DNA from: an uncultured Oscillospiraceae bacterium
GTDB taxonomy: Bacteria > Bacillota > Clostridia > Oscillospirales > Oscillospiraceae
Length of the DNA stretch: 64,000 nt
Direction of reading: 5' to 3'
Assembly (NCBI GenBank): GCA_949841355.1
Contig: CATKZP010000001.1
Location: 173,682-237,681, forward strand
The notes under the pieces were generated by a model. That model was not told the DNA's origin. It was given only the letters and a program-made list of their open reading frames with translations, and did not search any database. Made by a program: the position numbers and the translations under genes. Position 1 is the first letter of the stretch; the number at the start of each line of letters is the position of its first letter. Below, in pieces: positions 16,015-53,260 of the stretch.

Positions 16015-16171
16015 CCTTTCGGTACACACATATTCGCTCTGAACAAAGGAAATAGCAAGTGCATTCTGGGGCGAAATCTACACAAACATGACCGTTTGAA
16101 ATTGTGTAGTTTATTCTCAAAAATGACTTGCTATTATCTTGGTTCAGAGTGATTAATACACTACCGAAAGG
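16015..16171. promoter_or_regulatory. Repeat element copy 1: inverted repeat flanked by two divergent TTGCTA promoters
   Basis: CTACACAA(16078)-N16-TTGTGTAG(16109); plus TTGCTA at 16128 + 17 nt + GATTAATACACTACCGAAAGG; minus TTGCTA at 16058 ... GAATATGTGTGTACCGAAAGG. Confidence 0.8.
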
Positions 16172-16218
16172 CAAACGAAGTGCCCACCCCAGAGGCTATG
16201 GGCAGAAAGGATTTTGAA

Positions 16219-16791
16219 ATGAAATACGCTGACATCAACAAGAAGTACACCGCCATCATCGCCGAGTACCTGGCTAATGGGTACACCATCAACACCCGCA
16301 CCATGGGCGGCAGCCAGGGCGACTATGCGCACATCGACCTCACCAACGGCACCGAGGTCATCCGCATCCTGGTCGAAACCTTCCACGAATGGGGCAAGCT
16401 TTCCATCGAGGGCCTGGAGATCATCGTGGGCCGGGCGGACAGCGAGGTCATCCCGAACTGCGAGAGCGACTACTGCACCCTCTGGAACAACAGACTCGAC
16501 ATCATCAGCCGGGAACGCTTCTATGAGATCGGGGCGGATCGCCACCACGGGAAGTTCTACGGAACGCAGGAAGAAGCAACTGCCGCCCAGCAGCTGCGGT
16601 TCCAGCGGTACATTGCCAAGCACCAGGACAGCAAGACCGAGGACATCACCGCCAAGGCCATGGAGATTGCCAAGCGCATCATCCGCCGGGAATTCAATGT
16701 CAAGCGCATCTGCGAGGCCGACGTCACGGTCAGCAAGTACAGCGGCACCTACGCCGTCAAGTACAGAAACAAGGTCTACCGCCTGCATTAA
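16219..16791 (+). CDS. Hypothetical phage protein (190 aa)
   Basis: RBS AGAAAGGA, ATG at 16219. Confidence 0.8.
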   Translation: MKYADINKKYTAIIAEYLANGYTINTRTMGGSQGDYAHIDLTNGTEVIRILVETFHEWGKLSIEGLEIIVGRADSEVIPNCESDYCTLWNNRLDIISRERFYEIGADRHHGKFYGTQEEATAAQQLRFQRYIAKHQDSKTEDITAKAMEIAKRIIRREFNVKRICEADVTVSKYSGTYAVKYRNKVYRLH

Positions 16792-16856
16792 GGTGGAACA
16801 CAGCCGCCCCTCTGGGGAGCCGGGTGCCGTTGCGCCCGGCTTTTGGCACTGTAAAT

Positions 16857-16950
16857 CTACACAGTTTCCCTCCCCCGTCTTTGTGTAGTTTATTCTCAGA
16901 AATGACTTGCTATTACCTCCGTTTAGAGTGATTAATACACTACCGAAAGG
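16857..16950 (+). promoter_or_regulatory. Repeat element copy 2
   Basis: CTACACAG-N16-TTGTGTAG, 18 nt, TTGCTA-17-GATTAATACACTACCGAAAGG. Confidence 0.8.
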
Positions 16951-16978
16951 GAAAACCACAAAAACGGAGGAAAAAAAG

Positions 16979-17317
16979 ATGATTAGCTACGCACAGGCAT
17001 TGAGAAGAGCACGGGCAGCCAAGAGCGACTGGAACTCAGAGGAGCGGATTTCCAAAGCGACCATCACCTGGGCTGATGCCGAATGGGAGTACGAAGTGGA
17101 GGTCGAGAACGAGGACATGAGGGATTCCGAGTTCAAAGCCTGGGTCAAGGAAAATGCCGAGGACTTCGCCAAGGAAGCCGCCACCGAGGAGGGCACCACC
17201 TTTGAGGAACTCCTTGGAATCGACTACGACTACGAGCCCATCGACAACGACGAAAGGTTCCGGGATGACTACGAAGCCTACGCCGAGTTCGAGTGGGAAT
17301 GCCGCACCGGACGCTAA
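16979..17317 (+). CDS. Highly acidic hypothetical protein (112 aa)
   Basis: RBS GGAGG; 33 D/E vs 14 K/R by manual count. Confidence 0.8.
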   Translation: MISYAQALRRARAAKSDWNSEERISKATITWADAEWEYEVEVENEDMRDSEFKAWVKENAEDFAKEAATEEGTTFEELLGIDYDYEPIDNDERFRDDYEAYAEFEWECRTGR

Positions 17318-17325
17318 CCCCCAGC

Positions 17326-17357
17326 CGAGAGCAAGCCCCGAAGGGGGCTTGCTCTCG
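17326..17357 (+). terminator. Perfect hairpin, terminator-like
   Basis: CGAGAGCAAGCCCC-gaag-GGGGCTTGCTCTCG; no clear U-tract. Confidence 0.55.
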
Positions 17358-17410
17358 TTCAGCATCATGGTAAGCGGGCTGCACCCGTGAGCCGTGACCA
17401 CGATTGTAAA

Positions 17411-17504
17411 CTACACAAATGTGGGATGTGGAAATTGTGTAGTTTATTCCCAGAAATGACTTGCTATTATTGCGGTTTAGAGTGATTAATACACTACCGA
17501 AAGG
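17411..17504 (+). promoter_or_regulatory. Repeat element copy 3
   Basis: CTACACAA-N16-TTGTGTAG, 18 nt, TTGCTA-17-GATTAATACACTACCGAAAGG. Confidence 0.8.
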
Positions 17505-17530
17505 AAAAACACGAAACGGAGGATACGAAC

Positions 17531-17689
17531 ATGACCTACCAGGAACTCGAACAGAAGGTAATCAAGAACCGCCTCATCCTGCGGCGCTGTACCGACAGCA
17601 AAGCCCGCCGCCGCATCATCCGGGAAAACCACGAATTGATGACCGAAATGGACCGCCGCTGGACTGCGGCAGGGAGGGATCGGCGATGA
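17531..17689 (+). CDS. Small basic hypothetical protein (52 aa, not in ORF track)
   Basis: RBS GGAGG; MTYQELEQKVIKNRLILRR...; ATGA-coupled to the next gene. Confidence 0.7.
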   Translation: MTYQELEQKVIKNRLILRRCTDSKARRRIIRENHELMTEMDRRWTAAGRDRR

Positions 17690-18057
17690 CAAGATTTCAA
17701 CGGGAGCTGCGCGGCGACCTGGGTGCCTTTTGGCAGCAGCACGCCCAAGGCGAACTGGCAAAGGTCAAGGCTGACCTGGAAAGTGGGGCCATTACCATTG
17801 ACGGGGCGGGGGTTGCCCGGAACTGCATCGGGCGGGCCTTGATGGATGATCTGTTGGAGATGCTGGTGCTGGTCACCGACAAGGCCGACAGCGCCGCCAC
17901 GCAGGCCGCACGTGAGGCTGAAGTCAAAGCCGACCTGGAATCCTACCGGGCGGCGAGAAGGGCCCCCAGCGCCGAGGAAATGGCCGAGATGCGGGCCGCG
18001 TTCGGTGAGGGGTCCACGGTGGTGGATGTCCTCACCGGCGAGAAGATTTTCCTCTGA
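17686..18057 (+). CDS. Hypothetical phage protein (123 aa)
   Basis: ATG overlapping the upstream stop; ends EMRAAFGEGSTVVDVLTGEKIFL. Confidence 0.75.
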   Translation: MTRFQRELRGDLGAFWQQHAQGELAKVKADLESGAITIDGAGVARNCIGRALMDDLLEMLVLVTDKADSAATQAAREAEVKADLESYRAARRAPSAEEMAEMRAAFGEGSTVVDVLTGEKIFL

Positions 18058-18105
18058 CCGCCTGCCAAAATCCCAAACGTCTGGGAATTTGCCGCAAACA
18101 AAAAA

Positions 18106-18143
18106 ATCACCCCCTTACAGGCCAAAACCTGCAAGGGGGTGAT
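18106..18143. terminator. Terminator between the accessory cluster and the lysis cassette
   Basis: ATCACCCCCTTACAGG-ccaaaa-CCTGCAAGGGGGTGAT (one mismatch) with an A-run on its left. Confidence 0.7.
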
Positions 18144-18146
18144 GAG

Positions 18147-18479
18147 TTACTTTTTGTTGTTGATGGTCTTGATCTGTTCCAAGGTCTGCCGGAGCTTGTC
18201 GAAGCCGAACATGGCGGCGTAGGCCACGAAGATGCCAAGAACCACGGCCCCAGCAACCATATACCAGGTGATGGGGGTGCTGGTAATCTGGCACAGGGCG
18301 AAGAAGGCCAGCAGCGTGACCGCCATGGCCACCAGGAAGGCCAGCAGATTGGTGGGCATCTTCTCCCAGGTCAGCTTCTTCAACACCTCGGTGATGATGT
18401 TGGTCACCACCATGAGGATCAGCACCGCGGGAAGGAGCAGCGGGATCATGGCGGGGATATTATGGATGATGTTTTCCAT
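18147..18479 (-). CDS. Holin
   Basis: 110 aa, three hydrophobic segments, charged C-terminus, adjacent to endolysin. Confidence 0.75.
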   Translation of the reverse strand: MENIIHNIPAMIPLLLPAVLILMVVTNIITEVLKKLTWEKMPTNLLAFLVAMAVTLLAFFALCQITSTPITWYMVAGAVVLGIFVAYAAMFGFDKLRQTLEQIKTINNKK

Positions 18480-18492
18480 GGGGTTTTCCTCC

Positions 18493-19839
18493 TCAAATTT
18501 TCTTGCAGAAGTCCAGCGACACCCAGCCCTTGCCGGACTTCAGCTTGCCCCAGAGTGTGGCACCCGGGCCGGTGGCCTCGCTGACGATGGTGTAGACGCC
18601 GGGGGTGATGGCGTTCTGGACGATGGCGGTGTTGGTGCCGGGACCCTTGCGGATGCGCAGATCGGCGGCGGTGATGCGGACCTTATAGGGAACGCTGCTC
18701 ACGGGAGCGGAGGGCTGTACCGGGGCCGCGCCGGTGGCCCCCAGCTTGGCGTTCACCTTCGCGGCGATGTCGCCGAGCCGCTGGTAGATGTAGTCGCCGG
18801 GGCACGCCTTGTTGGCGAACCAGCGGTGAACCGTGAGGTTCTGCTTGGCGGGGTTGCCCACCAGGTTCTTGTCACCGAACCACAGCAGTTTCTTGATGCC
18901 GTTGCGCCGGCAGATGTCGGTACACAGCTCGATCAGCGCGGCCATGGCCTTCTCGGTGATGGCGTAGGGGTGCTTGGCCTCACAGGCCACCTCAATGGTA
19001 ACAGCCTGGTAGTCGTTGGAGGAGCCAGAGATTCCGTTCACCCGGATGGGGACGTTGACCCCGTTCACCTTCTTGTAGCCGCCCGTACACCAAGAGCGGT
19101 CCTTCTCCTCGACACACAGGCCGATGGAGCCATCGTACCCCACAACGTAGTTGCAGGAGGCCCCCTTGCTGCTGGGCTGGAACACCTCGCACCCCCGCTT
19201 GGCGGTCACCTGGCCGACAAAGCAGTGAATGGTGATGGTGTCGATGGCGTGGTTCCGGCCGACGGTCTTATTGGGAGAAATCAGCTTGACCGTGGCCAAA
19301 GGGCTGTTGGAAAATCCCATGGTGTTGACACTTCCTTTCTGTGCGTACTTGTCGAAATACTTCTGGCCGTACCCGGCCCGCTTGGCCTTCACGGCCTCGC
19401 TCTGATCCGCCGGGCGTTCGAACTGGAGCAGGACGGCATCGGAGGCGGCCCGGACACTGGTGGCGGTCTTCAGCGTGGCCAGAACCGTCTTGTAGCTGGT
19501 GGACAGCTCCTGCATCAAAAAGCCGAGCTGCATCTCCAGGTCGCCGATGCTCTTACCTGCATCTTTGGCGAATTTATGCAGGTTAGCCTTGCGAGTGTGG
19601 TACGTCCACTGTGCCAGTCCATACCCGGCGCAATCATGGGCGAAGTTGGTGTAGCTGCCGCTGTCCACCCTCTCGGTGTACTCGGCATCGGCCATGCCCA
19701 GCTTCCCCTCGTAGCTGTTCTGGAGGTTGTTGGGCCGCAGGCCAGACTCTGCGTAGAGGTTCCCCATCAGACCGGCGGCGCCAGCGTCGGTGAGCCCCTG
19801 GGCCTTCAGAAAGCTCCAGATTCTTTCTTCAGTATTCAT
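18493..19839 (-). CDS. Endolysin: phage-tail-lysozyme-like domain + Amidase_2 + SH3-like cell-wall-binding domain
   Basis: GLMGNLYAESGL / GYGLAQWT; ITIHC...HRWFANKACPG; LRIRKGPGT...WGKLKSGKGWVSLDF. Confidence 0.88.
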   Translation of the reverse strand: MNTEERIWSFLKAQGLTDAGAAGLMGNLYAESGLRPNNLQNSYEGKLGMADAEYTERVDSGSYTNFAHDCAGYGLAQWTYHTRKANLHKFAKDAGKSIGDLEMQLGFLMQELSTSYKTVLATLKTATSVRAASDAVLLQFERPADQSEAVKAKRAGYGQKYFDKYAQKGSVNTMGFSNSPLATVKLISPNKTVGRNHAIDTITIHCFVGQVTAKRGCEVFQPSSKGASCNYVVGYDGSIGLCVEEKDRSWCTGGYKKVNGVNVPIRVNGISGSSNDYQAVTIEVACEAKHPYAITEKAMAALIELCTDICRRNGIKKLLWFGDKNLVGNPAKQNLTVHRWFANKACPGDYIYQRLGDIAAKVNAKLGATGAAPVQPSAPVSSVPYKVRITAADLRIRKGPGTNTAIVQNAITPGVYTIVSEATGPGATLWGKLKSGKGWVSLDFCKKI

Positions 19840-19842
19840 CGC

Positions 19843-20226
19843 TTATCCGACTCCTCCTTCTTCCCCGCCCTCATTGGGCGGTTTATCTTCCTGCCTGCTT
19901 CTGCCGAATACCATCCCCTCGTTGTGCTCGAAGATGTTCTCCAGCACCTTCAGCGCGTTCACTCCCAAAATGGTGGTAATGGCCTGCTGGGAGAGCTCCA
20001 CTACCGGGAACGGCTGATATAGCTTGACGGTGGAATAAACGGCGATGACGTAGGACACCGACACCCAACCCAGCGCAAATATTTGGGTGGTAGCGAACAG
20101 AAACCTTGTTACCGACTGCAGGACATTGGGCCGGGGCTTTCCTGTCCGCAGTTCCTTCACCCGTTTCCGCAGATGCCGGATAGTGGCCGCACTGAACACG
20201 ATACCCAGGGCAGCCCCCACAATCAA
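19843..20226 (-). CDS. Membrane protein in the lysis cassette (start uncertain)
   Basis: Hydrophobic segments; only a TTG start in frame. Confidence 0.55.
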   Translation of the reverse strand: MIVGAALGIVFSAATIRHLRKRVKELRTGKPRPNVLQSVTRFLFATTQIFALGWVSVSYVIAVYSTVKLYQPFPVVELSQQAITTILGVNALKVLENIFEHNEGMVFGRSRQEDKPPNEGGEEGGVG

Positions 20227-20286
20227 AGCGGCAGCGGCGATTAAAATCGACCTTAAGATGTCCGTTGCACATCATCCTTTCGCAGT

Positions 20287-20577
20287 TCAGTCTGTATCTT
20301 CAACATCATGGGCCGCCTGGTTCAGATGCTTCTCCAGCTTATCCAAGGCGGCAGTTACAGGGCCGTTGCACCCTTTCTCCTTAAGACCCTTGAGGCAGGC
20401 AAGCACCCCATAGCAGATAAGGGTCTGTTCGTTGCGGATTGCCGCGATAGCCTCGTCCTGCTTCTTGTTCCGCAGTACAAACCTGTGGCACCATAAGGCA
20501 ACGCCACCGATCACCCCCAGGGCGGTCAGCAGCGCGGCCAGCTCGATGAGCATATCCGCGCTGATTGTCACTTCCAT
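20287..20577 (-). CDS. Putative holin-like membrane protein
   Basis: One N-terminal TM helix plus coiled coil; first gene of the lysis cassette. Confidence 0.55.
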   Translation of the reverse strand: MEVTISADMLIELAALLTALGVIGGVALWCHRFVLRNKKQDEAIAAIRNEQTLICYGVLACLKGLKEKGCNGPVTAALDKLEKHLNQAAHDVEDTD

Positions 20578-20602
20578 TTACACATTCCCCCAAAGATAAA
20601 TT

Positions 20603-20628: not shown

Positions 20629-20633
20629 TTGGC

Positions 20634-21265: not shown

Positions 21266-21601
21266 TCAAATGGTCTCACTATCTGCCGCCACACCAAGCT
21301 CCAACAGGGTGATGCGGTATTCGTGGTCTACGGTCAGGCCGTCAATGTCTGCCGAAAGGTCGTGGGCCGCAGCGACCATCGGGCCGGCGTCCGTTTCCTC
21401 CAGCATGACGATATCCAGCACCCCCATACCCTCCGGGGACTCTCGGCCCAGCAGGCGGTAGGGCGTCCCTTCAAAAGCAATGCCCGAAGCCTCCGGCTCC
21501 GGGCACAGGTTGTAGCAGCCGTTCTCGGCCTGCTTGATGTAAGTGGGGGTCTCGGTCATGCCGATGCGTTCCCCATTACTGGTTCGTGTGATTGTGAACA
21601 T
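21266..21601 (-). CDS. Hypothetical tail-fibre-associated protein (XkdW-like position)
   Basis: RBS GGAGGTG; C-terminal EYRITLLELG coiled-coil motif; precedes the XkdX-like gene. Confidence 0.55.
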   Translation of the reverse strand: MFTITRTSNGERIGMTETPTYIKQAENGCYNLCPEPEASGIAFEGTPYRLLGRESPEGMGVLDIVMLEETDAGPMVAAAHDLSADIDGLTVDHEYRITLLELGVAADSETI

Positions 21602-22734
21602 TTTGCACCTCCAAAAAAGATAGCATGGTAGAGCCGCCGTAGGCGAAGCAGGCGGCCATGGTCATTGAAATTGCGGTAGTAGGCGCTCTGGCATTCCATG
21701 TACTGCTCCACGTCTTTCAGGGGACGCTTGCCCGCCTTGAACTCCCGATAGAACAGCTTCAGCTTCCGCCTGGCTCGCTTTACACCGTCCCGACTGCCGT
21801 TGACCTTGATTTTCCCGGTTTCCGTCAGGGTAAACCGGGCTTTGCAGAATCGGAAGGGCTTTGTGAGGGGGATGATCTGGCACTTACGCTTGTTGACACG
21901 GATGCCCATAGCTTCAAAGCGCCGAACCAGCTCCCGCGCAAATTCCTTCAGGTTTTCAACGTCGGGCAGGATAGCCCAATAATCATCCGCATAGTGGCCG
22001 AAGCAATGGACGCCCATCTGACATTTGGCCCAATTATCTACGGCACTGGGCAGCGACATCATCTCCAGCTGGCTCGGCTCCACACCAAGCGGCATCCCAC
22101 GTCCCGGTATGGGGGTAGGGGCGTTCTGAACGATAGTATCGGGCACCAATCGTAAATCAGGGTTGGGAATCAGGCGCTGGTGCCGCTGATAGATTTCGGT
22201 CTGCGGCGCCCATGGGAAAAATTTCTTTAGGTCCAGCAGCATAATGGCACCTGCCCGTCCATAGTGCCGGAAGTGCCAGTGTAGATGGTTCTTGAGCCGA
22301 TCAAATTGCCAGTGGAGCCCCTTTCCCTTTTGACTGGCACCGTTGTCGTAGATCATGCTGGGGCCATACAAGGGAACCAGCACCTCATTACAGAGAGTCT
22401 TGTGGATCTGCCGGTCGGTGATGTGGGGTGCGTCAATGGGGCGCACCTTGCCACGTTCGCGCAGGGTAAAATGGACACACTTTTTGGATTTCCACGTTCC
22501 GTCCAGAATCATTCGCCGCCTACTGGCGGTACCGGAAAACAGGTGGGATTCAAAGTTCTGGACGCTCTGTTTCCACCGGACGCCGTTGCAGCACTTCCGG
22601 CCATGAAAGAACATCTTCCGGTAGCTATACACTTTGCCAATGGGGCCGAGGGCGGCGCATCTGGCCTCTCTCTTTGCCTGCCGCTTTGCCTTGCGGCGTT
22701 GATACCGCGCCTCCCGGCGCTCCGAACTTGTCAT
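21556..22734 (-). CDS. DGR reverse transcriptase
   Basis: HITDRQIHK, LDLKKFF, GMPLGVEPSQ (SQ signature), HYADD catalytic motif, basic C-terminus. Confidence 0.93.
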   Translation of the reverse strand: MTSSERREARYQRRKAKRQAKREARCAALGPIGKVYSYRKMFFHGRKCCNGVRWKQSVQNFESHLFSGTASRRRMILDGTWKSKKCVHFTLRERGKVRPIDAPHITDRQIHKTLCNEVLVPLYGPSMIYDNGASQKGKGLHWQFDRLKNHLHWHFRHYGRAGAIMLLDLKKFFPWAPQTEIYQRHQRLIPNPDLRLVPDTIVQNAPTPIPGRGMPLGVEPSQLEMMSLPSAVDNWAKCQMGVHCFGHYADDYWAILPDVENLKEFARELVRRFEAMGIRVNKRKCQIIPLTKPFRFCKARFTLTETGKIKVNGSRDGVKRARRKLKLFYREFKAGKRPLKDVEQYMECQSAYYRNFNDHGRLLRLRRLYHAIFFGGAKCSQSHEPVMGNASA

Positions 22735-22972
22735 AAAAAAGTATTCGCCCTCCGTACAGTCGTCTTGTAGGGTGCCGTCTAAATCTGCGTTGCCCCAATA
22801 CACATGAAACGGGTTAGGCACATACCCCGCCATGCAAGAAGCGTCCGTGTAGGGGCATCAAAGGGCAGTTTTAGGGATTGGGTACCCAGGGAAGTATCTC
22901 TCCTTTTGCTAAGGTCGTCTTTCACCTGGCCAGATAAATCCAGCCTGTTACTCCATTTGACCCAGCATAGCA

Positions 22973-23100
22973 AAATCCGGGCAGCAGGCCCCCAGAGGCA
23001 TTAGCGTTGTTGTTGTTGTAGTTGCCGTCGGTGTTGACGATGCAGAAGTTATTGTTGTTGTTGTAATTAGGGGAGCGGAGCCACCACCACACCGCCGAGG
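22973..23100 (-). repeat. DGR template repeat (TR)
   Basis: 128 bp co-linear with 24054-24181; 13 AAY codons in the target frame; non-coding position between avd and RT. Confidence 0.95.
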
Positions 23101-23132
23101 GACAAATTTTCAGAGATACACCCAATTCTTGC

Positions 23133-23597
23133 TCAGGGTCTTTTCTTTTGAGCCAGGGATTTGACCGCGCCCTTTAAGAGCTCATTCTCCTTGTCAATCA
23201 GCTCCCCCAGGCTCTGCGCCATCTTGTCCAACTTCTCTGAGGCATCCTTAGCGCCGACGGTCTTCCCCTTTGAGGTGGTAAAGCACCCCTCCGGGTTTTC
23301 CATCATCACCAGGTAGCAGTGGGTCAGCCGGGAATCCAGCGCCATGAGAGAGGCCCGCGCTTCCAGGAGGTGAGCTTTCCGAAGCTCAATGCGCTGCGGG
23401 TCTGATGGGAAGATGCTGTTTGCCTTTTCAGCATGGTCAATGACCTCACCGGCCAGTTTGGCCACAGGCTCTGCAACGAGACGGGAGTATCTGGCCGACA
23501 GCCTTGTCAGAAAATTCAGCGTTTCCACATAAATCTGATGGGCCGTGTTGATAAACTCCGCCTTGCTGGTGGTGCGTTTTTGTGCGAGTACCGACAT
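23133..23597 (-). CDS. avd: Avd-like DGR accessory protein (four-helix bundle)
   Basis: 154 aa helical protein between target and TR; RYSRLVAEPVAKLAGEVIDHAEKANSIF..RIELRKAHLLEARASL; assigned mostly by position and size. Confidence 0.75.
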   Translation of the reverse strand: MSVLAQKRTTSKAEFINTAHQIYVETLNFLTRLSARYSRLVAEPVAKLAGEVIDHAEKANSIFPSDPQRIELRKAHLLEARASLMALDSRLTHCYLVMMENPEGCFTTSKGKTVGAKDASEKLDKMAQSLGELIDKENELLKGAVKSLAQKKRP

Positions 23598-23598
23598 T

Positions 23599-23787
23599 TT
23601 ACACCCCTGTTTCTGTCTCTCTGGGCTTGATGGGTCCACGCTCCCGTTCCACTTCCTCCAGATGCTTCAGCAGAACAAATTCGATGTAGTTCGTTACAGA
23701 GCGGTGTTCTTCCGTTGCCAGCGTTCCAACTTTGTTAAAGACTTCATCGGTGAGGCGCAGGGTAAACACCCGTTTTGTTGTCGCCAT
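23599..23787 (-). CDS. Arc/ribbon-helix-helix DNA-binding protein
   Basis: KRVFTLRLTDEVFNKVGTLATEEHRSVTNYIEFVL; RBS GGAGGG. Confidence 0.8.
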   Translation of the reverse strand: MATTKRVFTLRLTDEVFNKVGTLATEEHRSVTNYIEFVLLKHLEEVERERGPIKPRETETGV

Positions 23788-23818
23788 ACTTGACCCTCCA
23801 ACTGATAGGCATAAGGCT

Positions 23819-23875
23819 ATTATACGGTTGATGTTGCCCTTTGTATGCAGTCTAAAGGCAGGTAAGTGATAGCAT
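23819..23875 (-). promoter_or_regulatory. Putative promoter/operator of the RHH-avd-TR-RT unit
   Basis: TATAAT at 23824-23819; ATGCTATCA and ATGCCTATCA near-repeats flank it; no clear -35. Confidence 0.45.
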
Positions 23876-23961
23876 TTCCCGAAATTTATCGAATTTTGGT
23901 GGAAATTAACGGAGACCCAAAAATAAAAAATCGCGTCGGGCGCTTACGCGCCCTCCGTGTT

Positions 23962-24045
23962 CCGGCCCTGGCGGGCCGGTGAGCGTCCTGCCGGGAGGCC
24001 GCCCGCTTTCGCGGGCGGATCAGGCCGGGATCCTCTGCGGAGGAT
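23962..24045 (-). other. Hairpin/cruciform array 3' of VR
   Basis: Stems of 6, 8 and 7 bp with 4-nt loops CGCA, GAAA and GCCA on the minus strand. Confidence 0.7.
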
Positions 24046-25913
24046 TAGACAGCAAAGCCGGGCAGCAGGCCCCCAGAGGCATAAGCGTTGCTGTCGCCGT
24101 AGGAGCCGTCGGTGTAGACGATGCAGAAGTAACGGTTGCTGGCGTAATAAGGGGAGCGGAGCCACCACCACACCGCCGAGGCGGTGGATGTGTGTCTATA
24201 GGCAATTTTGCTATTACCAGCTTTATAATAGGCGTACTGAGCCTGAGAGTTTTTCTCAGTGTTATTTGCATAACCATCGTTACCCTGTACCTCATAGTTC
24301 GACAGGAGGAACAGGTAGTCAGTGGTTGCCGTCACATTGCCCGCTACATGGCCGGTGTTATTGCCCACGTTGTCCGTGTACTTAGTCACAGACTTCATGC
24401 AGCTCCGCAAATCAGAGGGAAGGGCCGCCATCAGACTGTTAGCCACAGGGCTGGTCGGGGTTTTGCTGTTACCCAGCAGCGTCTTCCGCATATAGCTGTC
24501 CTTCCAGCCGCCCACATTGGTGTTGCTGCTGTTCATGTGGAAATAACCGTCCCCAGAAACACCGGAGCCGTAGTTGTTGTCACACAGAGCCACCATCTTC
24601 CCGCTGATCTTGCCGATCTGGAAGTGGATGCGGTTGGCACCTTCCTTGCCGCTGTTGTGATTGAATCCCAAGATGAACGCCTGCACAGACAGATTGGAGA
24701 TACCGAAGCTGCCCACCGTACCGTTGATAGTGATGGTCTTGGTGTCTCCCACCGCCCAATAGCTGGCCCCTGTACCGGCATCCGAGACCTGTTTGATGGT
24801 GCTCCAGGAGTTGTCGTTGAGGGTGTTGGTGGGGAGGGTCACCGTCACGCTGCACGTCTTATCCGCCGGCGCAAGGTGATTGGTGCCCGCCGCCACCTTG
24901 ACGGTGATAGTTGCGCTGCCCTTGCCCTTGGCAGTCACGGTAACGTTGGAGCCCGACACGCTCACCGTGGCCACGCTGGTATTACTGGAGGTGGCGGAGA
25001 TTGTGCCATCCCCGGCCCTCGTTACACCGATAGTGCCGGACATAGCCCCTGCGTTCAGCGACAGGCTGGTCTTATTCAGCGACAGGCTACCCGCCGCCTT
25101 GGCAATGCTCCACGAGACTGTCTTGGCGGTAGTCGTACCGTCCGGCCACTGGAAGTTGGCCCCCGGCGTGAAGCTCGCGCTGTAGGTTCCGACATTGGTT
25201 GCCTTACTGGTGCCGCCGATGGTCATTTTACTGGTGTCGTATCCGGTGAACTGCCCCGTCAGTTCACCGCCCGTATAGGTCTGCGCGGCCTTTGCGGTAG
25301 GGACACTGATGACAGCCCGCTGGATCGTCCACTGAATCGTCTTTGCCGTGGTGGTGCCATCCGGCCACTTGAAGCCCTCTTTGGGTGTGACTGTGGCCTC
25401 GTAGGTTCCCACGTTCGTCCCGCTGGTGGTTCCGCCCAGCGTGAGCTTGGATGTGTCCAGCCCGTTCCATGAGGGGCTTTGTACGGCCCCCGTGTAGTAA
25501 AGCGCACCGTTCTGCGTAGGAACGATATTGATGGTGCTGTTGAGATCGGTGATGGCTTTTGCGGCATCCTCTGCCGCTTTCTGCGCATTCTCCGCAGCTG
25601 TTTTTGCCGTGCCTGCATCCCGCTTGGCCGCGTTTGCGGCATCGAGAGCGTCGGCGGCGGCCTGCCTGATCTCCCCGATGGTGCCCTCGTTGGTGGTGGC
25701 TTTTTCCAGCGCCTCGTCCGCCGTGGACTTCGCGGCGTTGGCGTTGGTATCCGCAGCATTCGCCCTCTCCAGAGCAGCGTTCGCCGTAGACTGTGCGCTG
25801 TTGGCAATATCCTGCACACCTTCTGCGGCAACTTTGGCGGCGTTCGCAATGTCAGAGACATCCCTCAGCTCTTTCGCGGTGACACCAGGGACATTCACAG
25901 TTCCAAATGCCAT
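24045..25913 (-). CDS. DGR target: tail fibre / receptor-binding protein (coiled coil, two ~73-aa repeats, Ig-like domain, DUF6273-like C-terminal domain)
   Basis: Twice-repeated TNVGTY...F.WPDGTTTAKT; SSNTSVATVS Ig motif; ends WWWLRSP...GLLPGFAV. Confidence 0.88.
   Translation of the reverse strand: MAFGTVNVPGVTAKELRDVSDIANAAKVAAEGVQDIANSAQSTANAALERANAADTNANAAKSTADEALEKATTNEGTIGEIRQAAADALDAANAAKRDAGTAKTAAENAQKAAEDAAKAITDLNSTINIVPTQNGALYYTGAVQSPSWNGLDTSKLTLGGTTSGTNVGTYEATVTPKEGFKWPDGTTTAKTIQWTIQRAVISVPTAKAAQTYTGGELTGQFTGYDTSKMTIGGTSKATNVGTYSASFTPGANFQWPDGTTTAKTVSWSIAKAAGSLSLNKTSLSLNAGAMSGTIGVTRAGDGTISATSSNTSVATVSVSGSNVTVTAKGKGSATITVKVAAGTNHLAPADKTCSVTVTLPTNTLNDNSWSTIKQVSDAGTGASYWAVGDTKTITINGTVGSFGISNLSVQAFILGFNHNSGKEGANRIHFQIGKISGKMVALCDNNYGSGVSGDGYFHMNSSNTNVGGWKDSYMRKTLLGNSKTPTSPVANSLMAALPSDLRSCMKSVTKYTDNVGNNTGHVAGNVTATTDYLFLLSNYEVQGNDGYANNTEKNSQAQYAYYKAGNSKIAYRHTSTASAVWWWLRSPYYASNRYFCIVYTDGSYGDSNAYASGGLLPGFAV
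24054..24181 (-). repeat. DGR variable repeat (VR) at the 3' end of the tail-fibre gene
   Basis: 16 mismatches to TR, all at TR adenines. Confidence 0.95.
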
Positions 25914-48313: not shown

Positions 48314-49714
48314 TCAGTAAACGAACGAGTAAGCAAAAGGCTGCTGCCCGGTTTCGATTTCTAAAAACGCATTTGCGGATGCGTCCACCATGTCCTTGAA
48401 CTTCCCGTCCGGGAAATTCTCCAGTTGGAGCAGATACGGCTCGTTCCATTCGCCGGCGAGTATGTCGAAATTGCCCGCCTGCCACTGGGCGGCCATGGGC
48501 TCCGCTCTGGTCGCCTTGCTGCCGGACTCCAGTTCGGTGGTCACATTGAAGCCAGACAGGAATTTGATGTAGGACTCCGCCTGCTCCTTTCCCGCTTGTC
48601 CGGGGTCCTGTGGGAGCCGGATGCGCACATCGCCGTATTTGTCCCGGTCCATTTGCGCCGTCATTAGAATGGTCTTGCGCACATCGGAGGCTGCCATCTG
48701 CCTGTTTACCACATCCGCGATGATATACCGCCCGTTGCTGCGCTTGCCCATGAGGACTCCTGCGGTATAGGCGGGGTCACCCTTCTGTGTTTTCTCGGAT
48801 GCCGCCAAGTCCCAGCACCGCACCCAGCGCACAACGTCCGTAGGCACGGCGTCCAGTCTTTTTCCAAGCTGGGCGCGCTTGAAGAACAGCCCGGCGGCAG
48901 CTTTGATTTTCCAGTTGCCGTGCAGGAGCCGTTCCCGCTCCACGAGGGCCATGGCCTCCAGATTGGCGAGGTAGCCGGGGTCCTTCTCCAGCAGGAGTTT
49001 GTTATCGTAGACCGAAGCGGCAATAAAGGTAACGGACTTGGGCTTGTCCCGCTCCGTCTTTGTGGTGAGATTGAACCGTTCCCACAGTTCTTCGCGGGTG
49101 TCGGCCCAATGGATGACCTCCTCAATTCGGATGAACCAGCGGATTACCCCGCTGCGCTCCGGGATGGCATATCCTGTTTTCGGGTCGATCCACCACTCGA
49201 TAAACTTGGCAACCCAGCTGTCAGGGTCGGGGTTGCATGATGCTCGCGTATACGGCTTTACGCCACAAAGTGAGCGATTTCGGGAGAACATATAAAAAAA
49301 CGTCTTTTCGCTGAAGTGGGTCAACTCATCGAAATACAGGGCGCATATTTGGCTCCCCTGCCATTTTCCGAGGTCTAAATCCCGCTCGATATGTTTGAAG
49401 CTGACCTTGGAGCACGTTCGGCCTTTGGGGTTCATGAACTTCCACTGGCATCTTCCCAGGACTGGGACAGCATTCGGAAGGCCCGTATACAGATCGAGCG
49501 AAGTGTCCCACAAACCACCCTCGGAGAATATCTGATTGTGGTTCTTGCGGAAAAACACCGCACCGAAACCCTGCACATGGGTATAGTGGAGCGCGTCCAG
49601 CAGCATACCGTAGGTCTTTCCGCCGCCGGCCGCGCCGCCATAGATCACCACATCTGCCGGAGAGGACAGAAACGCCTCCTGCGGTCCCGGCTGTGGTCTG
49701 ATCTCCTTGTCCAT
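48314..49714 (-). CDS. Terminase large subunit
   Basis: PQPGPQEAFL, GGAAGGGKT, YFDELTHF, RCWDLAA, KDMVDA. Confidence 0.93.
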   Translation of the reverse strand: MDKEIRPQPGPQEAFLSSPADVVIYGGAAGGGKTYGMLLDALHYTHVQGFGAVFFRKNHNQIFSEGGLWDTSLDLYTGLPNAVPVLGRCQWKFMNPKGRTCSKVSFKHIERDLDLGKWQGSQICALYFDELTHFSEKTFFYMFSRNRSLCGVKPYTRASCNPDPDSWVAKFIEWWIDPKTGYAIPERSGVIRWFIRIEEVIHWADTREELWERFNLTTKTERDKPKSVTFIAASVYDNKLLLEKDPGYLANLEAMALVERERLLHGNWKIKAAAGLFFKRAQLGKRLDAVPTDVVRWVRCWDLAASEKTQKGDPAYTAGVLMGKRSNGRYIIADVVNRQMAASDVRKTILMTAQMDRDKYGDVRIRLPQDPGQAGKEQAESYIKFLSGFNVTTELESGSKATRAEPMAAQWQAGNFDILAGEWNEPYLLQLENFPDGKFKDMVDASANAFLEIETGQQPFAYSFVY

Positions 49715-49717
49715 ACA

Positions 49718-50209
49718 CTATCCCCCTCTTCCGTTGTCGGGCAGGTAGATGTGTACGGTCTCCTTTTCCCCTTCTTCAGAGCCAGACGCCTCAGCCGCAG
49801 CTTTCTTTGTTTCCAGCTCCTGCCTGAACCGCAGTTCTTCCTTTCGCAGTTTCAGCTCCTGTTTTTTCATATCCAGATGGGGGCTGTCCCCGCCGGTATC
49901 CCGAATAAACTCAGCGGCCCGGACGTCACCCCGGATTGCTTTCATCAGAATACCGGCCAGCATCACGTCCTGATAAGTGGCGTCCTCCACGTCGATGCCG
50001 AGCGCCAGCAGCCGCGGCGTGACCTTCTCCACGAACTCCTGCTCACTGACGTCCAGGCCGGCACCCAGCAGGGCATTCAGCGTCTGCCGCATGGTTTTTC
50101 TCCGCCGTCTGGCCGCCCCGGACGCCACGCCGCCCTTCTTGCCGTTTTTCACGGCTTCATCATGGCTTTGGTCGCTGGTAAACGGTATTAGATTCTTCTC
50201 ATTTGCCAT
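49718..50209 (-). CDS. Terminase small subunit (KGG-motif type)
   Basis: NLIPF..AVKNGKKGGVASGAARRRRK, KAIRGDVRAAEFIRDT; directly upstream of TerL. Confidence 0.72.
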   Translation of the reverse strand: MANEKNLIPFTSDQSHDEAVKNGKKGGVASGAARRRRKTMRQTLNALLGAGLDVSEQEFVEKVTPRLLALGIDVEDATYQDVMLAGILMKAIRGDVRAAEFIRDTGGDSPHLDMKKQELKLRKEELRFRQELETKKAAAEASGSEEGEKETVHIYLPDNGRGG

Positions 50210-50261
50210 ACCACCACCTTCCCCCTATACGCCCCCTTCGCGCCATATAGCTGGCATTCCA

Positions 50262-50579
50262 TCAGACTGGCCATCCCTTGAATTCCTTGGCCTCTTGTTC
50301 GGCAATATCCGCTTTGGCCTTCTTGATGCGCACCTCGGCTTCCAGCGCCTCCCGCTCCAAGGCATCTTTGCGGCCAGCCGCCTTGTCCCGAAGGTACTGT
50401 ATATAAGCCTGGGTGGACTCCACCACGTTATAGCGTTTCCCGGCGGGGGTGTCCCTTTTCTTCAGTACACCATCTCTGGTGAGTTGGCTGATGCTCTGGG
50501 CGGACAGGGTTAACAGCCTCGCCAGGTCTTCCGCCTTGCAATAGCCAGGGGTTTCTTCAATCGTTCCGTTTCTTGGCAA
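50262..50579 (-). CDS. Nu1-like (lambda TerS-type) winged-helix protein, apparently C-terminally short
   Basis: LARLLTLSAQSISQLTRDGVL..RYNVVESTQAYIQYLR..LEAEVRIKKAKADIAE. Confidence 0.6.
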   Translation of the reverse strand: MPRNGTIEETPGYCKAEDLARLLTLSAQSISQLTRDGVLKKRDTPAGKRYNVVESTQAYIQYLRDKAAGRKDALEREALEAEVRIKKAKADIAEQEAKEFKGWPV

Positions 50580-50662
50580 CTTTATCGCCCTTTCTGAAAA
50601 ATAGCAGCACAAAACAGGCGGACGGCCCAAATTGGAGCCGCCCGCCGTCTCGCCGGTTATAT

Positions 50663-50857
50663 TTACATCTGGTGCCGATGGATGGTGTCGAGGATGCGCT
50701 CCTGCTCATCCGCACCCACACCGATGCTCTCCAGCGCCTCTCGTGTCCCACAGTCGGGGCAGATGGGGCCGCTGTTGTCCCTGGCCATGGCTGGGCGCTC
50801 GGTGTATGTCCGCCCGCACCTGGGGCAGACGTGCTCGCTCACTGTTTTGTCGCGCAT
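50663..50857 (-). CDS. Small zinc-ribbon protein
   Basis: CPRCG and CPDCG pairs. Confidence 0.65.
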   Translation of the reverse strand: MRDKTVSEHVCPRCGRTYTERPAMARDNSGPICPDCGTREALESIGVGADEQERILDTIHRHQM

Positions 50858-51321
50858 AAAACTGCCTCCCCTTTACTGTCTGCGTATGCATCCAGAAGGA
50901 TGCGCGGGTCAAAGCCAAAGCTCCGATACCCTTGTGTGCAGGTGATGAAGTAGGAATTGCTGGGCGTTCCGAGGGGCCTGTCCGCGTACATGGCGTAGGC
51001 AAAACCCTCCAGGGTGCGCACCTCGCCGGAGCCGGCCAGCGTTACCTCCAGTTCCATGTCCATCTTGTGGTAGAACACGGGGTAGCCCTCATAGCGGTCG
51101 AGGCTGCGCTCATCCGCCGCCGTGACCTCCCACACCGCCACTGGCACCCTGCCTCCCTCCCATGGTTCAATGGTGAGGTAGGAGCCGGTCTTGCTCCCCT
51201 TGAACAGCAGTCGGTAGTTCTCGATGACTGCGGTGCCGACAACAGTCGCCCCAGGGCAGCGTCCCCGCATCTGCGGCAGGTTGAGGTTGCTGCCGTAGGC
51301 AATGTAAAACCTTTTCGCCAT
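50839..51321 (-). CDS. Gamma-glutamylcyclotransferase (AIG2-like) family protein
   Basis: YIAYGSNL, LDRYEGYP..Y motifs. Confidence 0.88.
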   Translation of the reverse strand: MAKRFYIAYGSNLNLPQMRGRCPGATVVGTAVIENYRLLFKGSKTGSYLTIEPWEGGRVPVAVWEVTAADERSLDRYEGYPVFYHKMDMELEVTLAGSGEVRTLEGFAYAMYADRPLGTPSNSYFITCTQGYRSFGFDPRILLDAYADSKGEAVLCATKQ

Positions 51322-51412
51322 TTCCGATCCGTCCTTTCCGAAGGGCATCCCCTTCTACTGCCTAAAGCCCGCTTGTGGCGGGTTAGGCGGGGCGGTGCGG
51401 AGCCGGGGTGGG

Positions 51413-52363
51413 TCAGGCGGCCCTTCCGTTGCGGAAGGCCGCGTTCCCGGCGAGGCGGCGGGTCAGGAGGTCGCGGGCGGTGGCGAATTCCTCTCCGATG
51501 AACCCCAGCCGGAGGAGCCAAGTCCTCATGGCGTACTTGGGGTTGTCGGTCTGTTGGGGCTTGGGGCTGGCGTTCTTGAGGGCTTTGGCCATTTGGCTGA
51601 GGGCCAGGCAAAGCTGGATGTAGCTTTTCAGTTGTCCGGCGTGGAGGCCGTTCTTGCGATCGGTGGTCGGTGCGTCGAACTGAAAAAGGCGGAACTCAAT
51701 CGTGCCTTTGGTGAAGGTGGCGTGGAGGTTGAGCATATGGTAGCGGCTCTCGTTGTAGTGGGCGCTGCGGCTCTCGTAGCTCCTGCTGTTGCAGGTGTAC
51801 CAAACCTCGGCAAGGTCGGCCATTGTGGTGGGCTTTTGCCGGTTCAGCTTGTCCAAAAAGGCGGGGTTCACCGTTTTGCAGTAGTGGCTCATCCGGCCCC
51901 GGTCGAGGTTGAGGGCGTCCGCCAGGAGGCGTTCATGGCTGGCCATGATGTTGGCCAGGTTCCGCAGGCTCTGCGGGGTGTGGCCCTTGGCTCCGATGTG
52001 GATGTGGACTCCGCAACCCCTGGTGGCGTCGCTCTTGGCCCCGGCCTTGCGCAGGTGCCTGACCAACCCTTGGAGGAGGTCCATGTCGGCGTAGGTCAGG
52101 ATCGGAGTGACCATCTCGCACTTTTCGCTGTCCGGCCCGTGGATGCTGACGTCCTTCTGGAACTTCCACTCGCGGCCCTGGGCGTCCCAGGCGGACCAGG
52201 TCATGTAACCGTTGCGGGTGGCGGTGTTCTGGTAGCGGCGGGTGCCGAAGAACTCGGCGGCCAGCTTGGCGGCCTTGCTCCGCTCGATGTTGTTCATCTC
52301 GACCTCAACCCCGATGGTCTGCTTCTTCATCTCGGCGACCTGGTTCATCAGCTTCTCGTTCAT
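51413..52363 (-). CDS. Amidoligase (COOH-NH2 ligase type 2) family protein
   Basis: IGVEVEM, EMVTP, GCGVHIHIG, RYHMLN, TIEFRLF. Confidence 0.88.
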   Translation of the reverse strand: MNEKLMNQVAEMKKQTIGVEVEMNNIERSKAAKLAAEFFGTRRYQNTATRNGYMTWSAWDAQGREWKFQKDVSIHGPDSEKCEMVTPILTYADMDLLQGLVRHLRKAGAKSDATRGCGVHIHIGAKGHTPQSLRNLANIMASHERLLADALNLDRGRMSHYCKTVNPAFLDKLNRQKPTTMADLAEVWYTCNSRSYESRSAHYNESRYHMLNLHATFTKGTIEFRLFQFDAPTTDRKNGLHAGQLKSYIQLCLALSQMAKALKNASPKPQQTDNPKYAMRTWLLRLGFIGEEFATARDLLTRRLAGNAAFRNGRAA

Positions 52364-52391
52364 TGTGTTGTCCTCCGTTTGTTGTGTTTTC

Positions 52392-52486
52392 CCTTTCGGT
52401 AGTGTATTAATCACTCTAAACGGAGTTAATAGCAAGTTATTTCGAGCCATAAAGTACACAAGGATGTGGGGCTTGTTTTGGTGTAT
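52392..52486 (-). promoter_or_regulatory. Repeat element copy 4 (drives amidoligase)
   Basis: Minus strand TTGCTA-17-GATTAATACACTACCGAAAGG with a degenerate inverted repeat (GTACACAA at 52454) 18 nt upstream. Confidence 0.78.
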
Positions 52487-53149
52487 TTACACCGCCTTGC
52501 CGCCGGATTTGAAGGCCGAGGAGCCGGTGAGGTTACGGAGCAGAATCTTCCGCTCCTCCTTGTACTCGGCCCCGATGAAGCCCAGCCGGAGGAGGAAACA
52601 CCGGAATGCGTACTTGTCGTTGTCGGTGTCCTTATCCTTGGCGGTGATGCGCTTCTGGTTCCGCGCCATGTCGCAGAGCGCGGTGATCAGGTGCGTGTAT
52701 GCCTTGACCTCCTCGGCGGTGGTCTCACCGCTGAACCAGGGGAAGGAAACCGTGTCGGCCTCCACCTGGACCGGCAGCAGGTCAACACCCAGGGCCTTGC
52801 GGATCAGCCGCCCCTTGGCGGCGATGAGGCTGTGGAGGTTGTTGAGGGCCTCCGGGGTGAAGCTGTCCGCGGGCATCTGAATGGTGAGCCCATCGTGCGC
52901 CGAGGGCTGCTCCGCCCCGGCGTCGGCCTCAAAGCCCATGCTGGCCAGTCGCTCGATGAGGTTCTCGATCTCCTCGCTGTCGGCCCGGTCGTCGAAGGTG
53001 ACGGTGCCGCTGCGGTCAATGGTGAAATAGTCCACTTGGTAGGCAAAGCTGGGGGCGCCCAGGTACTTGGCCTCGGCCCCGGTGATGTTGGCGATGGCAT
53101 CGACCAGAGACTTGCGGTCGGCCCCGGTGCGGTTGTATTTGATTGTCAT
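52487..53149 (-). CDS. Conserved phage protein (commonly labelled virulence-related protein)
   Basis: YLGAPSFAYQVD..IDRSG, VSFPWF, KYAFRCFLLRLGFIG. Confidence 0.7.
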   Translation of the reverse strand: MTIKYNRTGADRKSLVDAIANITGAEAKYLGAPSFAYQVDYFTIDRSGTVTFDDRADSEEIENLIERLASMGFEADAGAEQPSAHDGLTIQMPADSFTPEALNNLHSLIAAKGRLIRKALGVDLLPVQVEADTVSFPWFSGETTAEEVKAYTHLITALCDMARNQKRITAKDKDTDNDKYAFRCFLLRLGFIGAEYKEERKILLRNLTGSSAFKSGGKAV

Positions 53150-53176
53150 GGCTGTCTGCCTCCTTGCTTTTGTTGG

Positions 53177-53260
53177 CTACATATATCACTCTGTAGGCCA
53201 CAAATAGCAAGTCATTTCTCAGCCTGACTATCACAAATTATCCAGGCCACTCTTGTGTAG
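53177..53260 (-). promoter_or_regulatory. Repeat element copy 5
   Basis: CTATCACAA(53228)-N16-TTGTGTAG(53260); minus TGACTTGCTA-17-GATATATGTAG. Confidence 0.72.

Follow-up and report, generated by a model that had tools for sequence, protein, structure and literature searches.

The window analysed here is a 64,000-nucleotide (nt) stretch of contig CATKZP010000001.1 from an uncultured Oscillospiraceae bacterium. It contains a prophage that is a member of Ca. Heliusvirales, integrated at the gene for transfer-messenger RNA (tmRNA). Within this prophage, a module of about 120 bp, made up of a putative switch, a promoter, and a leader, is present in several copies. Five inverted repeat (IR) sites, located at 16078 (serving both strands), 16857, 17411, ~52455, and ~53229, head six near-identical promoter units. 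The copies of the module and the genes that follow them, called with a custom script, are listed below.

16078..16109, both strands: IR A, exact CTACACAA-N16-TTGTGTAG, common to two divergent promoters
16128..16218, plus strand: promoter A(+), with -35 TTGCTA at 16128-16133, a 17-bp spacer, and -10 GATTAA at 16151-16156; the predicted start lies near 16163 and the leader runs to the ATG at 16219
15988..16058, minus strand: promoter A(-), with -35 TTGCTA at 16058-16053, -10 GAATAT at 16035-16030, a leader, and a ribosome-binding site (RBS)
15808..15987, minus strand: 59-amino-acid (aa) gene (family 5), the unchanging neighbour at one side of the bidirectional site, followed by a hairpin at ~15772-15789
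16219..16791, plus strand: cassette gene A, phrog_38037 (function unknown), 190 aa, or 203 aa from the GTG at 16180, closed by terminator 16819-16844
16857..16978, plus strand: module B, with IR 16857-16888 (CTACACAG/TTGTGTAG, degenerate), -35 at 16907-16912, -10 at 16930-16935, leader, and RBS
16979..17317, plus strand: cassette gene B (family 2), 112 aa, very acidic, followed by hairpin 17327-17356
17411..17530, plus strand: module C, with exact IR 17411-17442, -35 at 17461-17466, -10 at 17484-17489, leader, and RBS
17531..18057, plus strand: cassette C, two genes (52 aa and 123 aa), followed by bidirectional terminator 18106-18143
52364..52488, minus strand: module D, with degenerate IR 52488-52455 (AAATACACCA/TTGTGTAC), -35 at 52435-52430, -10 at 52412-52407, leader, and RBS
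50617..52363, minus strand: unit D, with amidoligase 51413-52363 (PF12224), GGACT 50839-51321, zinc ribbon 50663-50857, and terminator 50617-50646
53150..53269, minus strand: module E, with IR 53260-53229 (CTACACAA/TTGTGATAG), -35 at 53210-53205, -10 GATATA at 53187-53182, a divergent leader, and an additional third, everted half-site at 53269-53262
52487..53149, minus strand: unit E gene, 220 aa, phrog_2443 'amidoligase enzyme', N-terminal part

Alignment of the six proposed units reveals one common architecture. The exact pattern CTACACAA-N16-TTGTGTAG occurs twice in the window (16078-16109 and 17411-17442; 0 expected from 100 shuffles), the 8-mer count is 6 against 0.91 expected, and the 21-mer GATTAATACACTACCGAAAGG is found in four exact copies against 0 expected. 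A profile built from the six units recovers those six (E = 3e-23 to 3e-30), and a profile search of the 64 kb yields no seventh module. These counts bear out the five IRs and six promoter units that an earlier, sequence-only reading of this DNA had proposed; the copies beyond the two exact ones, at 16857, ~52455, and ~53229, are degenerate, as it had said of the one at 52454. The distance of 17-19 nt between the IR and TTGCTA that it had given holds in all six units (18, 18, 18, 18, 17, and 19 nt from the end of the right arm), and TTGCTA is followed by exactly 17 nt ending in AGAG(T/C) and then by GATTAA, GAATAT, or GATATA. Units were also said to be often closed by a hairpin, and strong hairpins close units A, B, C, and D and the leftward unit, whereas none was found to close unit E. 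A T-run follows the hairpin only for A, C, D, and the leftward unit, and the 14-bp stem after B continues as GTTCAGC, without a T-run.

The dyad itself has the properties expected of a protein site. Across 107 confident sites, arm positions T, C, A, C, and A are kept at 92-99%, and mirrored arm positions agree about as often as chance, with weak excesses at positions 3 and 5 that can be explained by relatedness. A covariation test of the same sites shows no compensatory changes in the arms, and would-be A:C mismatches number 27 versus 33 for G:T. The arms are slightly unequal, the distal one often being CACAG with A at position 3 and the proximal one always TTGTG with C or G. The gap between half-sites, which is not conserved in sequence, measures 16 nt in 85 of the 107 sites, 17 in 17, and 15 in 4, and the CACA and TGTG cores stand 21 bp apart, or two helical turns on one face of the helix. 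The arms are thus conserved, as the sequence-only reading had it, but they are longer than the 8 bp it assigned, the half-site being about 10-12 bp (TAAANTACACAA). Its claim of a spacer fixed in length and variable in sequence also stands, except that the spacer is not fully random, since it has T-rich flanks and a G+C-rich middle. Rfam covariance models gave no match to the module at the gathering threshold, and in 15900-17600 only a chance miRNA hit (E = 0.44).

The position of the dyad relative to the promoter is equally constrained. In 164 unique pairs, the IR centre lies 33.5-35.5 bp from the -35 hexamer in 120, 24 bp in 10, and 45-45.5 bp in 25, with minor classes at 49 bp (5) and 70 bp (4); 155 of the 164 units therefore fall at 24, 33.5-35.5, or 45-45.5 bp, the classes other than the main one reflecting few independent events. 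The main spacing class contains 94 linker sequences, and its variation is no more than 1 bp. The IR centre would lie at about -70 from the predicted start (about -60 and -81 in the variants), where class-I activators sit. At site A, a single IR stands symmetrically between divergent promoters (34.5 and 35.5 bp), and at least nine other loci (L012, L038, L042, L051-L053, L067, L069, and L077) show the same head-to-head layout. Such a shared IR is incompatible with a transcript that starts upstream of the IR for both units, and it is natural for a symmetric protein. The IR is consequently read as a putative site for a dimeric regulator, most likely an activator. As a side observation, the extra 11 bp in the 45-bp class (e.g., L003:5266, L010:3564, and L016:3485) amount to a short G+C-rich palindrome, such as GGCCGATCAACGGCC or TGCCTGCAAATCCGGCA, that is constant in length but drifts in sequence.

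The sequences next to the dyad resemble a weak bacterial promoter. In 166 units, the -35-like hexamer is TTGCTA in 142, TTGATA in 11, and TGGATA in 9, and it is separated from the -10 hexamer by 17 bp in 165. The second -10 position is invariably A; the -10 hexamers are GATTAA, GAATAT, and GATATA, with TAATAT in the same register in more distant phages. Module hexamers agree with the consensus at no more than 7-9 of 12 positions, versus 10-11 of 12 for the phage switch promoters, and the modules therefore look like activator-dependent promoters. They are predicted to be weak promoters for the main sigma factor of the host (sigma-A type). The likely start is the conserved A of TACCGAAAGG, seven bases past the hexamer, so that the RNA would begin ACCGAAAGGGAAAAC. 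A promoter for a phage single-subunit RNA polymerase was considered in light of a faintly T7-like TAATAC..ACTA..GGGA and rejected, as no such polymerase is present among the open reading frames (ORFs), the largest of which encode the tape measure, the portal, a DUF6273 protein, and a methylase. The conservation is explained without a phage polymerase because the -35/17 bp/-10 architecture accounts for it. Sporulation and sigma-H promoters were likewise set aside, their consensus sequences not fitting.

Three further features of the promoter region are recorded here. In most promoter variants, the predicted start (16157-16163, 16024-16030, and equivalents) coincides with a half-site-like motif, TACAC/GTGTA, of either orientation, which the same protein might use as a third contact. 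The variable part of the promoter spacer is often CCTCCGTTT, the complement of the RBS AAACGGAGG (for example, 16913-16921 versus 16963-16971), and the predicted spacer/RBS duplex has a mean energy of -8.0 versus -4.5 kcal/mol for shuffled spacers (162 units, which are not independent). This complementarity could mask the RBS, in read-through transcripts only. Finally, E-type modules (53229-53269; L126, L150, L158, and L178) carry an everted tight pair, TTGTGT-N4-ACACAA, in addition to the usual distal partner, and precede the 220-aa gene with a different leader that lacks the ACCGAAAGG box.

The module is not peculiar to the window, for it recurs in more than 130 phage or prophage loci. Searched by itself, the 21-mer GATTAATACACTACCGAAAGG turns up in 32 IMG/VR contigs and 50 genome contigs, the latter mostly labelled Oscillospiraceae or other Clostridia (several Lachnospiraceae) and including Flintibacter muris DSM 110149. 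A profile finds about 190 copies, 166 of them unique, in 84 sources retrieved with the 21-mer, with at most five copies per locus. A scan with the IR only (TACACAA-N16-TTGTGTA), which takes no account of the promoter, again hits sites next to the same promoters and amidoligase clusters and also uncovers further-diverged promoter forms. The order of elements is the dyad AWNTRCACAA-N16-TTGTGYANWT, a linker of 16-17 nt, the -35 hexamer, the 17-bp spacer ending in AGAG, the weak -10 hexamer, the leader ACCGAAAGGGAAAAC, and the RBS. In the consensus of 64 standard units, near-invariant blocks follow one another as TAAANTACACAA, a 16-nt gap, TTGTGTANTTTAT, CAGAAWTRAC, TTGCTAT, about 9 free nt, GTTTAGAG, (T/C)GAWTAWT, about 7 nt, TACCGAAAGGGAAAAC, AAACGGAGG, and ATG. 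Because free positions lie between the blocks, these appear to be held by selection and not by recent copying alone. The exact 21-mer also occurs at 1299-1319 of Nitrosomonas marina L041 (NZ_FOCP01000026.1) with no surrounding module; it is probably a chance match, about 0.3 being expected in 596 Gb. No published description of the module was found, and the paper describing Ca. Heliusvirales contains no mention of promoters. Judged by its sequence, this is a real, well-defined, lineage-wide regulatory module, whose mechanism is predicted.

What follows the modules differs among relatives. The 180 ORFs located after modules group into 29 families at two hot spots, and they are mostly small ORFans, many of them acidic; named families include amidoligase-type proteins (67 ORFs), an Nmad4 domain protein, DUF7698, and DUF7678. 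Arrays beside the bidirectional site vary across 10 loci. With numbers denoting gene families, the window has 9-2-7, L012 has 9-2-3, L038 has 2, L051 and L069 have 3, L052 has 11-2-3-1, L053 has 11-2-7, and L067 has 1. Families 3 and 1 are also found after the amidoligase gene in L010, L028, and L070. L038 agrees exactly with window module A as far as CTACCGAAAGG, where it passes into the leader of gene B, with the junction inside AGAGTGATTAATACACTACCGAAAGG, which places a deletion or insertion breakpoint inside the shared 26-nt block. In sequencing run X37, one contig joins 16918 to 17473. The sequence-only reading had suggested that the repeats are recombination points that make the units exchangeable cassettes and had called for a scan of related prophages for varying content between repeats; the profile scan shows such differing arrays, and the L038 breakpoint falls within a module, both in favour of the suggestion. 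The repeats do serve as exchange points, apparently by homologous recombination, and a dedicated recombinase need not be assumed.

The surroundings of the modules in the window can be summarised by the following features.

13127-13473, plus strand: tmRNA gene, next to smpB; the prophage begins at its 3' end
21556-22833, minus strand: reverse transcriptase ORF (RVT_1), part of a likely diversity-generating retroelement
22727-22965, minus strand: RT-2 RNA, 169.8 bits
24045-25913, minus strand: DUF6273 protein, 622 aa, possible target of the likely diversity-generating retroelement
56265..56684, minus strand: candidate regulator, Ltr/ArpU-type, 139 aa, phrog_36 (E = 1.9e-17), followed by strong terminator 56186-56211

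Host genes occupy positions 1-13013 and include those for EF-G, EF-Tu, SmpB, and a cyclophilin-type prolyl isomerase. DNA similarity groups the window phage with the PV0364xx genomes of Ca. Heliusvirales. Release of the phage is suggested by a virome-like run (X18) in which the phage is present without the host flank, the contig changing at ~13468. The left arm, on the plus strand, carries two XRE genes with divergent near-consensus promoters (14335-14432), a twister-sister ribozyme, and then units A, B, and C. The phage body, encoded on the minus strand, extends from past 64000 to 18147, with its genes in the order of small early genes, the Ltr/ArpU-like 139-aa protein, two DNA methylases, units E and D, a terS-like gene, TerL, portal, capsid, and tail genes, the reverse transcriptase with its RT-2 RNA, and an endolysin. 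The twister-sister ribozyme (15515-15598, plus strand; Rfam, 80.9 bits) lies just upstream of the module cluster. The contig depth of this stretch is several-fold above that of its neighbours in every run, and variant contigs omit ~145-155 nt (15364-15372 to 15518-15519) directly before the ribozyme. The likely diversity-generating retroelement spans 21556-25913 on the minus strand. Exact-protein look-ups of two large ORFs gave no match.

The genes served by the modules offer an indication of timing. In NatCom_991, three modules head an amidoligase operon, small genes with TerL, and a serine recombinase, respectively, and NatCom_20922 has modules before its amidoligase gene and its terS-TerL operon; both phages thus have a module directly upstream of the terS/TerL operon. 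In the window, module D is the last promoter before terS, with three genes and a terminator in between. The terS-like gene at 50579 (minus strand) follows the strong terminator 50617-50646, and no recognisable promoter lies between them (50580-50662); expression of the late genes in the window would seem to depend on read-through from unit D or on antitermination. Because modules of relatives sit directly upstream of terS/TerL, we infer that they occupy the position of a late promoter and that 'middle/late' fits better than 'early'. The single regulated promoter set of the sequence-only reading is upheld in its architecture, namely an upstream protein site, a non-consensus -10, and strict spacing, but its assignment to the early phase is not. 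The common module architecture also supports the proposed link between the left-end genes and the amidoligase/GGCT unit. Regulation and cassette exchange, which had been put forward as separate inferences, are not alternatives, and both appear to be true.

Taken together, these features suggest a portable transcription-control module in which the site of a dimeric protein would activate weak promoters of a middle/late regulon, a prediction to which we assign a probability of roughly 0.55. The pseudo-symmetric site, with two half-sites of 10-12 bp (TAAANTACACAA and its mirror), would bind a dimeric or tetrameric protein on one helical face upstream of a weak promoter read by the host main sigma factor, whose -10 box, (G/T)AWWAW, would precede the conserved short leader ACCGAAAGGGAAAAC and the RBS. 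Once bound, the protein would recruit RNA polymerase in the manner of class-I activators and phi29 p4. The module-headed units would all fire together, and the regulon would comprise the left-end ORFan cassettes and the amidoligase/GGCT/zinc-ribbon operon, as well as the terS/TerL operon and the serine recombinase in relatives. Because they are near-identical repeats, the modules double as homology patches, by which phages acquire, lose, and exchange single-gene cassettes and by which these pass from one hot spot to the other.

The most likely binder, as a candidate, is the Ltr/ArpU-type protein encoded at 56265-56684. In addition to phrog_36, it matches phrog_248 and, weakly, sigma-70 ECF region 4. 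Its structural model (pLDDT, the predicted local distance difference test, of 79.7) contains two long N-terminal helices and a C-terminal helix-turn-helix similar to sigma region 4; the C-terminal domain resembles the -35-binding domain of Mycobacterium tuberculosis SigD (3vep_D) with a probability of 0.97 and a root-mean-square deviation of 2.7 A over 61 columns. The gene lies between the replication and packaging modules, a position that is kept in NatCom_991 and NatCom_28274. The half-site TTGTGT may be seen as resembling a -35 element, and a coiled-coil dimer of sigma-4-like domains could span half-sites two turns apart. Proteins of the Ltr superfamily are late-gene activators of Gram-positive phages that act at terS promoters (PMC3753634). 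A zinc ribbon (50663-50857, minus strand; 64 aa, CxxC-x18-CxxC) stands at the end of the amidoligase/GGACT operon and is 48-59% identical across phages whose Ltr-like proteins are 28-30% identical; its function may instead lie with the amidoligase/GGCT system. The 59-aa protein encoded beside the bidirectional site forms a narrow, unannotated family, with no match in Pfam, PHROG, or NCBIfam. Searches of PDB sequences with the Ltr-like, zinc-ribbon, and 59-aa proteins returned nothing useful. The two XRE proteins, which the sequence-only reading had named as candidates, are unlikely binders, as their own switch region (14316-14482) has near-consensus promoters and no half-site.

Several observations weigh against activation by an Ltr-type protein in a late regulon. 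The Ltr proteins that have been characterised recognise a set of three 7-nt direct repeats immediately downstream of the activator's own gene (PMC3753634); no such repeats occur at 56040-56290, which holds only the terminator, and the module site is a dyad. Between the window phage, NatCom_991, and NatCom_28274, Ltr-like proteins share only 28-30% identity and differ in their predicted recognition helices, and the IR core is nevertheless unchanged across the three. The helical phasing of the spacing classes comes from few independent events, the 45-bp class containing 20 linkers in three clusters and the 24-bp class two linker types, and the nine units at 49 and 70 bp are off phase. The TACAC-like half-site at the start would possibly fit a repressor loop as well. 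Owing to the terminator between unit D and terS, late expression from module D would need read-through. Public 'RNA' runs offer no help, being assembled contigs that break at repeats or DNA-like. Contig ends fall at repeat-induced graph breaks (e.g., 16141 = 16171-30), and in some candidate RNA runs the depth of tmRNA is not above that of phage DNA, and the one raw-read RNA run contributed no reads; run X37 is RNA-like (tmRNA ~7800x), with structural genes and cassettes alike at ~10x.

Other explanations account for parts of the evidence. The IR might be a repressor operator that keeps host-recognised promoters off, either in the lysogen or after an early phase. The conserved inverted repeats of phiC31 and the C1 operators of P1 are precedents for dispersed repressor sites, and identical operator-plus-promoter units scattered over the genome, a third TACAC/GTGTA half-site at the predicted start of most variants, and a NatCom_991 module that heads a serine recombinase, not a typical late gene, would all suit such a role. 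However, the dyad lies wholly upstream of the -35 with its centre at about -70, its variants are mostly displaced by one turn, the core hexamers are weak (7-9/12) where unregulated-type phage promoters are near consensus, and the XRE switch region has no half-site, all of which makes repression unlikely. In an alternative scheme that can coexist with activation, TTTAGAG (-20 to -14) and ACCGAAAGGGAAAAC, with its GNRA-type mini-hairpin, would load a lambda Q-like antiterminator, permitting read-through of unit-end terminators into terS and late genes, with the IR as the site of the regulator or of a partner. The terS-like gene at 50579, located after terminator 50617-50646 with no promoter between, would be explained in this way, and the non-consensus AGAG and the leader are near-invariant amid free neighbouring positions, with a loop that varies among GAAA, GCAA, and GTAA. 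Nonetheless, no Q-, N-, or LoaP-like protein was identified, the stem of the leader hairpin is only 2-3 bp, and relatives with a full module directly upstream of terS need no read-through; we consider antitermination distinctly improbable.

A conserved host factor could also bind the dyad and link the units to host physiology, since ACACAA/TTGTGT equals the outer halves of an NrdR box and the IR core is the same in phages assigned to many Clostridia families, even as the Ltr-like protein diverges to 28-30%. NrdR sites, too, are blocks joined by a linker conserved only in length (15-16 bp), with variants one turn longer (PMC13584703). Yet the arms misfit the 16-bp NrdR box (C4, A6, A8, T9, T11, and G13), with C and G separated by ~21 nt where the box has 9, a full box occurs by accident in NatCom_28274 alone, which lacks a second one, and the 13 kb of host DNA in the window contain no IR, so that a host factor is a very slim prospect. 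Least probable of all is that the IR acts as a hairpin in RNA or single-stranded DNA, serving as a terminator, processing site, or leader, or as an attC-like site for a cassette-excising recombinase. An 8-bp stem is possible between the arms, cassette movement is evident, and the promoter spacer is complementary to the RBS, the last being relevant only in read-through RNA. On the other hand, A:C pairs are about as frequent as G:T with no compensatory change, so it is arm sequence and not pairing that is conserved; under the bidirectional layout, the transcripts of the two units cannot both start upstream of the IR; and true terminators stand just upstream of IRs. Moreover, the element is 5' of each cassette with its own promoter, no integron-type integrase is present in the window, and the observed breakpoint is in the promoter/leader block, not the IR.

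The module resembles several known systems in part. The class-I activator CRP acts from -61.5, -71.5, and -82.5, and Ogr-type late promoters of P2 carry TGT-N12-ACA near -55. Both share with the module a dyad upstream of the -35 and a weak core, and probably also placement on one helical face at positions one turn apart; the module site differs in being ~36-40 bp long, with cores two turns apart and two off-phase lineages. The phi29 p4 site (5'-AACTTTTT-15 bp-AAAATGTT-3') similarly has unequal inverted arms of ~8 bp and a gap of 15-16 bp, and an elongated p4 dimer upstream of a weak late promoter aids RNA polymerase binding, as binding is predicted to do at the module (PMC1904284, PMC3100819). 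In contrast, p4 arms are A-tracts, not TACACAA, and p4 needs three A-tracts, one of them in the gap, which is G+C-rich in the module; phi29 has four sites in one region, as opposed to five dispersed sites here and at most five per locus in relatives. No p4 homologue was seen in the window phage. Ltr systems (RinA, ArpU, and LtrA-C) have a small sigma-4-like activator gene that ends the replication/early module upstream of packaging (PMC3753634, PMC3152322), and in relatives of the window phage the module is the promoter directly upstream of terS/TerL. Ltr targets are, however, three direct repeats beside the activator gene with a single late promoter (PMC3753634, PMC3152322), whereas modules are dyads with a 16-bp gap that stand 3-6 kb and 35 kb away, in 3-6 copies per genome, mostly before accessory genes.

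In evolutionary terms, the closest parallel is found in the promoter early stem-loop elements (PeSLs) of T4-type phages, small conserved regulatory cassettes repeated in hyperplastic regions, each before an ORFan, whose recombination produces insertions, deletions, and replacements among close relatives (PMC2839356, PMC4122927). PeSLs combine a strong sigma-70 promoter with a terminator stem-loop and no regulator site, unlike the modules with their weak promoter, apparently phase-locked dyad, and conserved leader. The terminator is not a conserved part of the module, a hairpin being found upstream of 64 of 160 modules (40%) versus 21% of controls, and module phages are temperate with Clostridia hosts. 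NrdR box pairs share with the dyad a block arrangement, a 15-16-bp length-only linker, one-turn-longer variants, and outer ACAC/GTGT, but each block is a full 16-bp palindrome that overlaps and represses nrd promoters, whereas module blocks are single half-sites (PMC13584703, PMC12051234). Identity with an NrdR operator was rejected, as the module arms lack the box pattern. Integron attC differs in that its IR is 3' of promoterless cassettes moved by IntI, and the module IR is 5' of a gene with its own promoter; no tyrosine recombinase is present among the called window genes that were searched. By analogy, the module most resembles a class-I or phi29-p4-type site in how it would work, an Ltr promoter in its apparent genomic role, and PeSLs in how it evolves.

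A bolder version, which we regard as doubtful, would combine these elements into a Heliusvirales-specific promoter-linked cassette system, with one Ltr-type protein acting on TTGTGT half-sites, cassette traffic, and anti-RBS insulation. If true, half-sites two turns apart would represent a new recognition mode for the Ltr superfamily, and every cassette would be switched on at once. The modules would then drive the traffic of small ORFan, DNA-modification, and possibly anti-defence genes, perhaps via mini-circles, and the anti-RBS in the spacer would protect every cassette against read-through translation.

The gut phages of the order Ca. Heliusvirales are widespread and for the most part uncultured, and the module provides a sequence signature by which members of the presumably co-regulated gene set, ORFans among them, can be found in any genome of the order. 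If the sigma-region-4-like protein binds it, the range of sites recognised by Ltr/ArpU regulators would be wider. The module also offers a compact regulated expression part for Oscillospiraceae and Lachnospiraceae, in which genetic parts are scarce. More broadly, the cassette arrays show that repeated regulatory cassettes shape the mosaicism of accessory genes outside T4-type phages.

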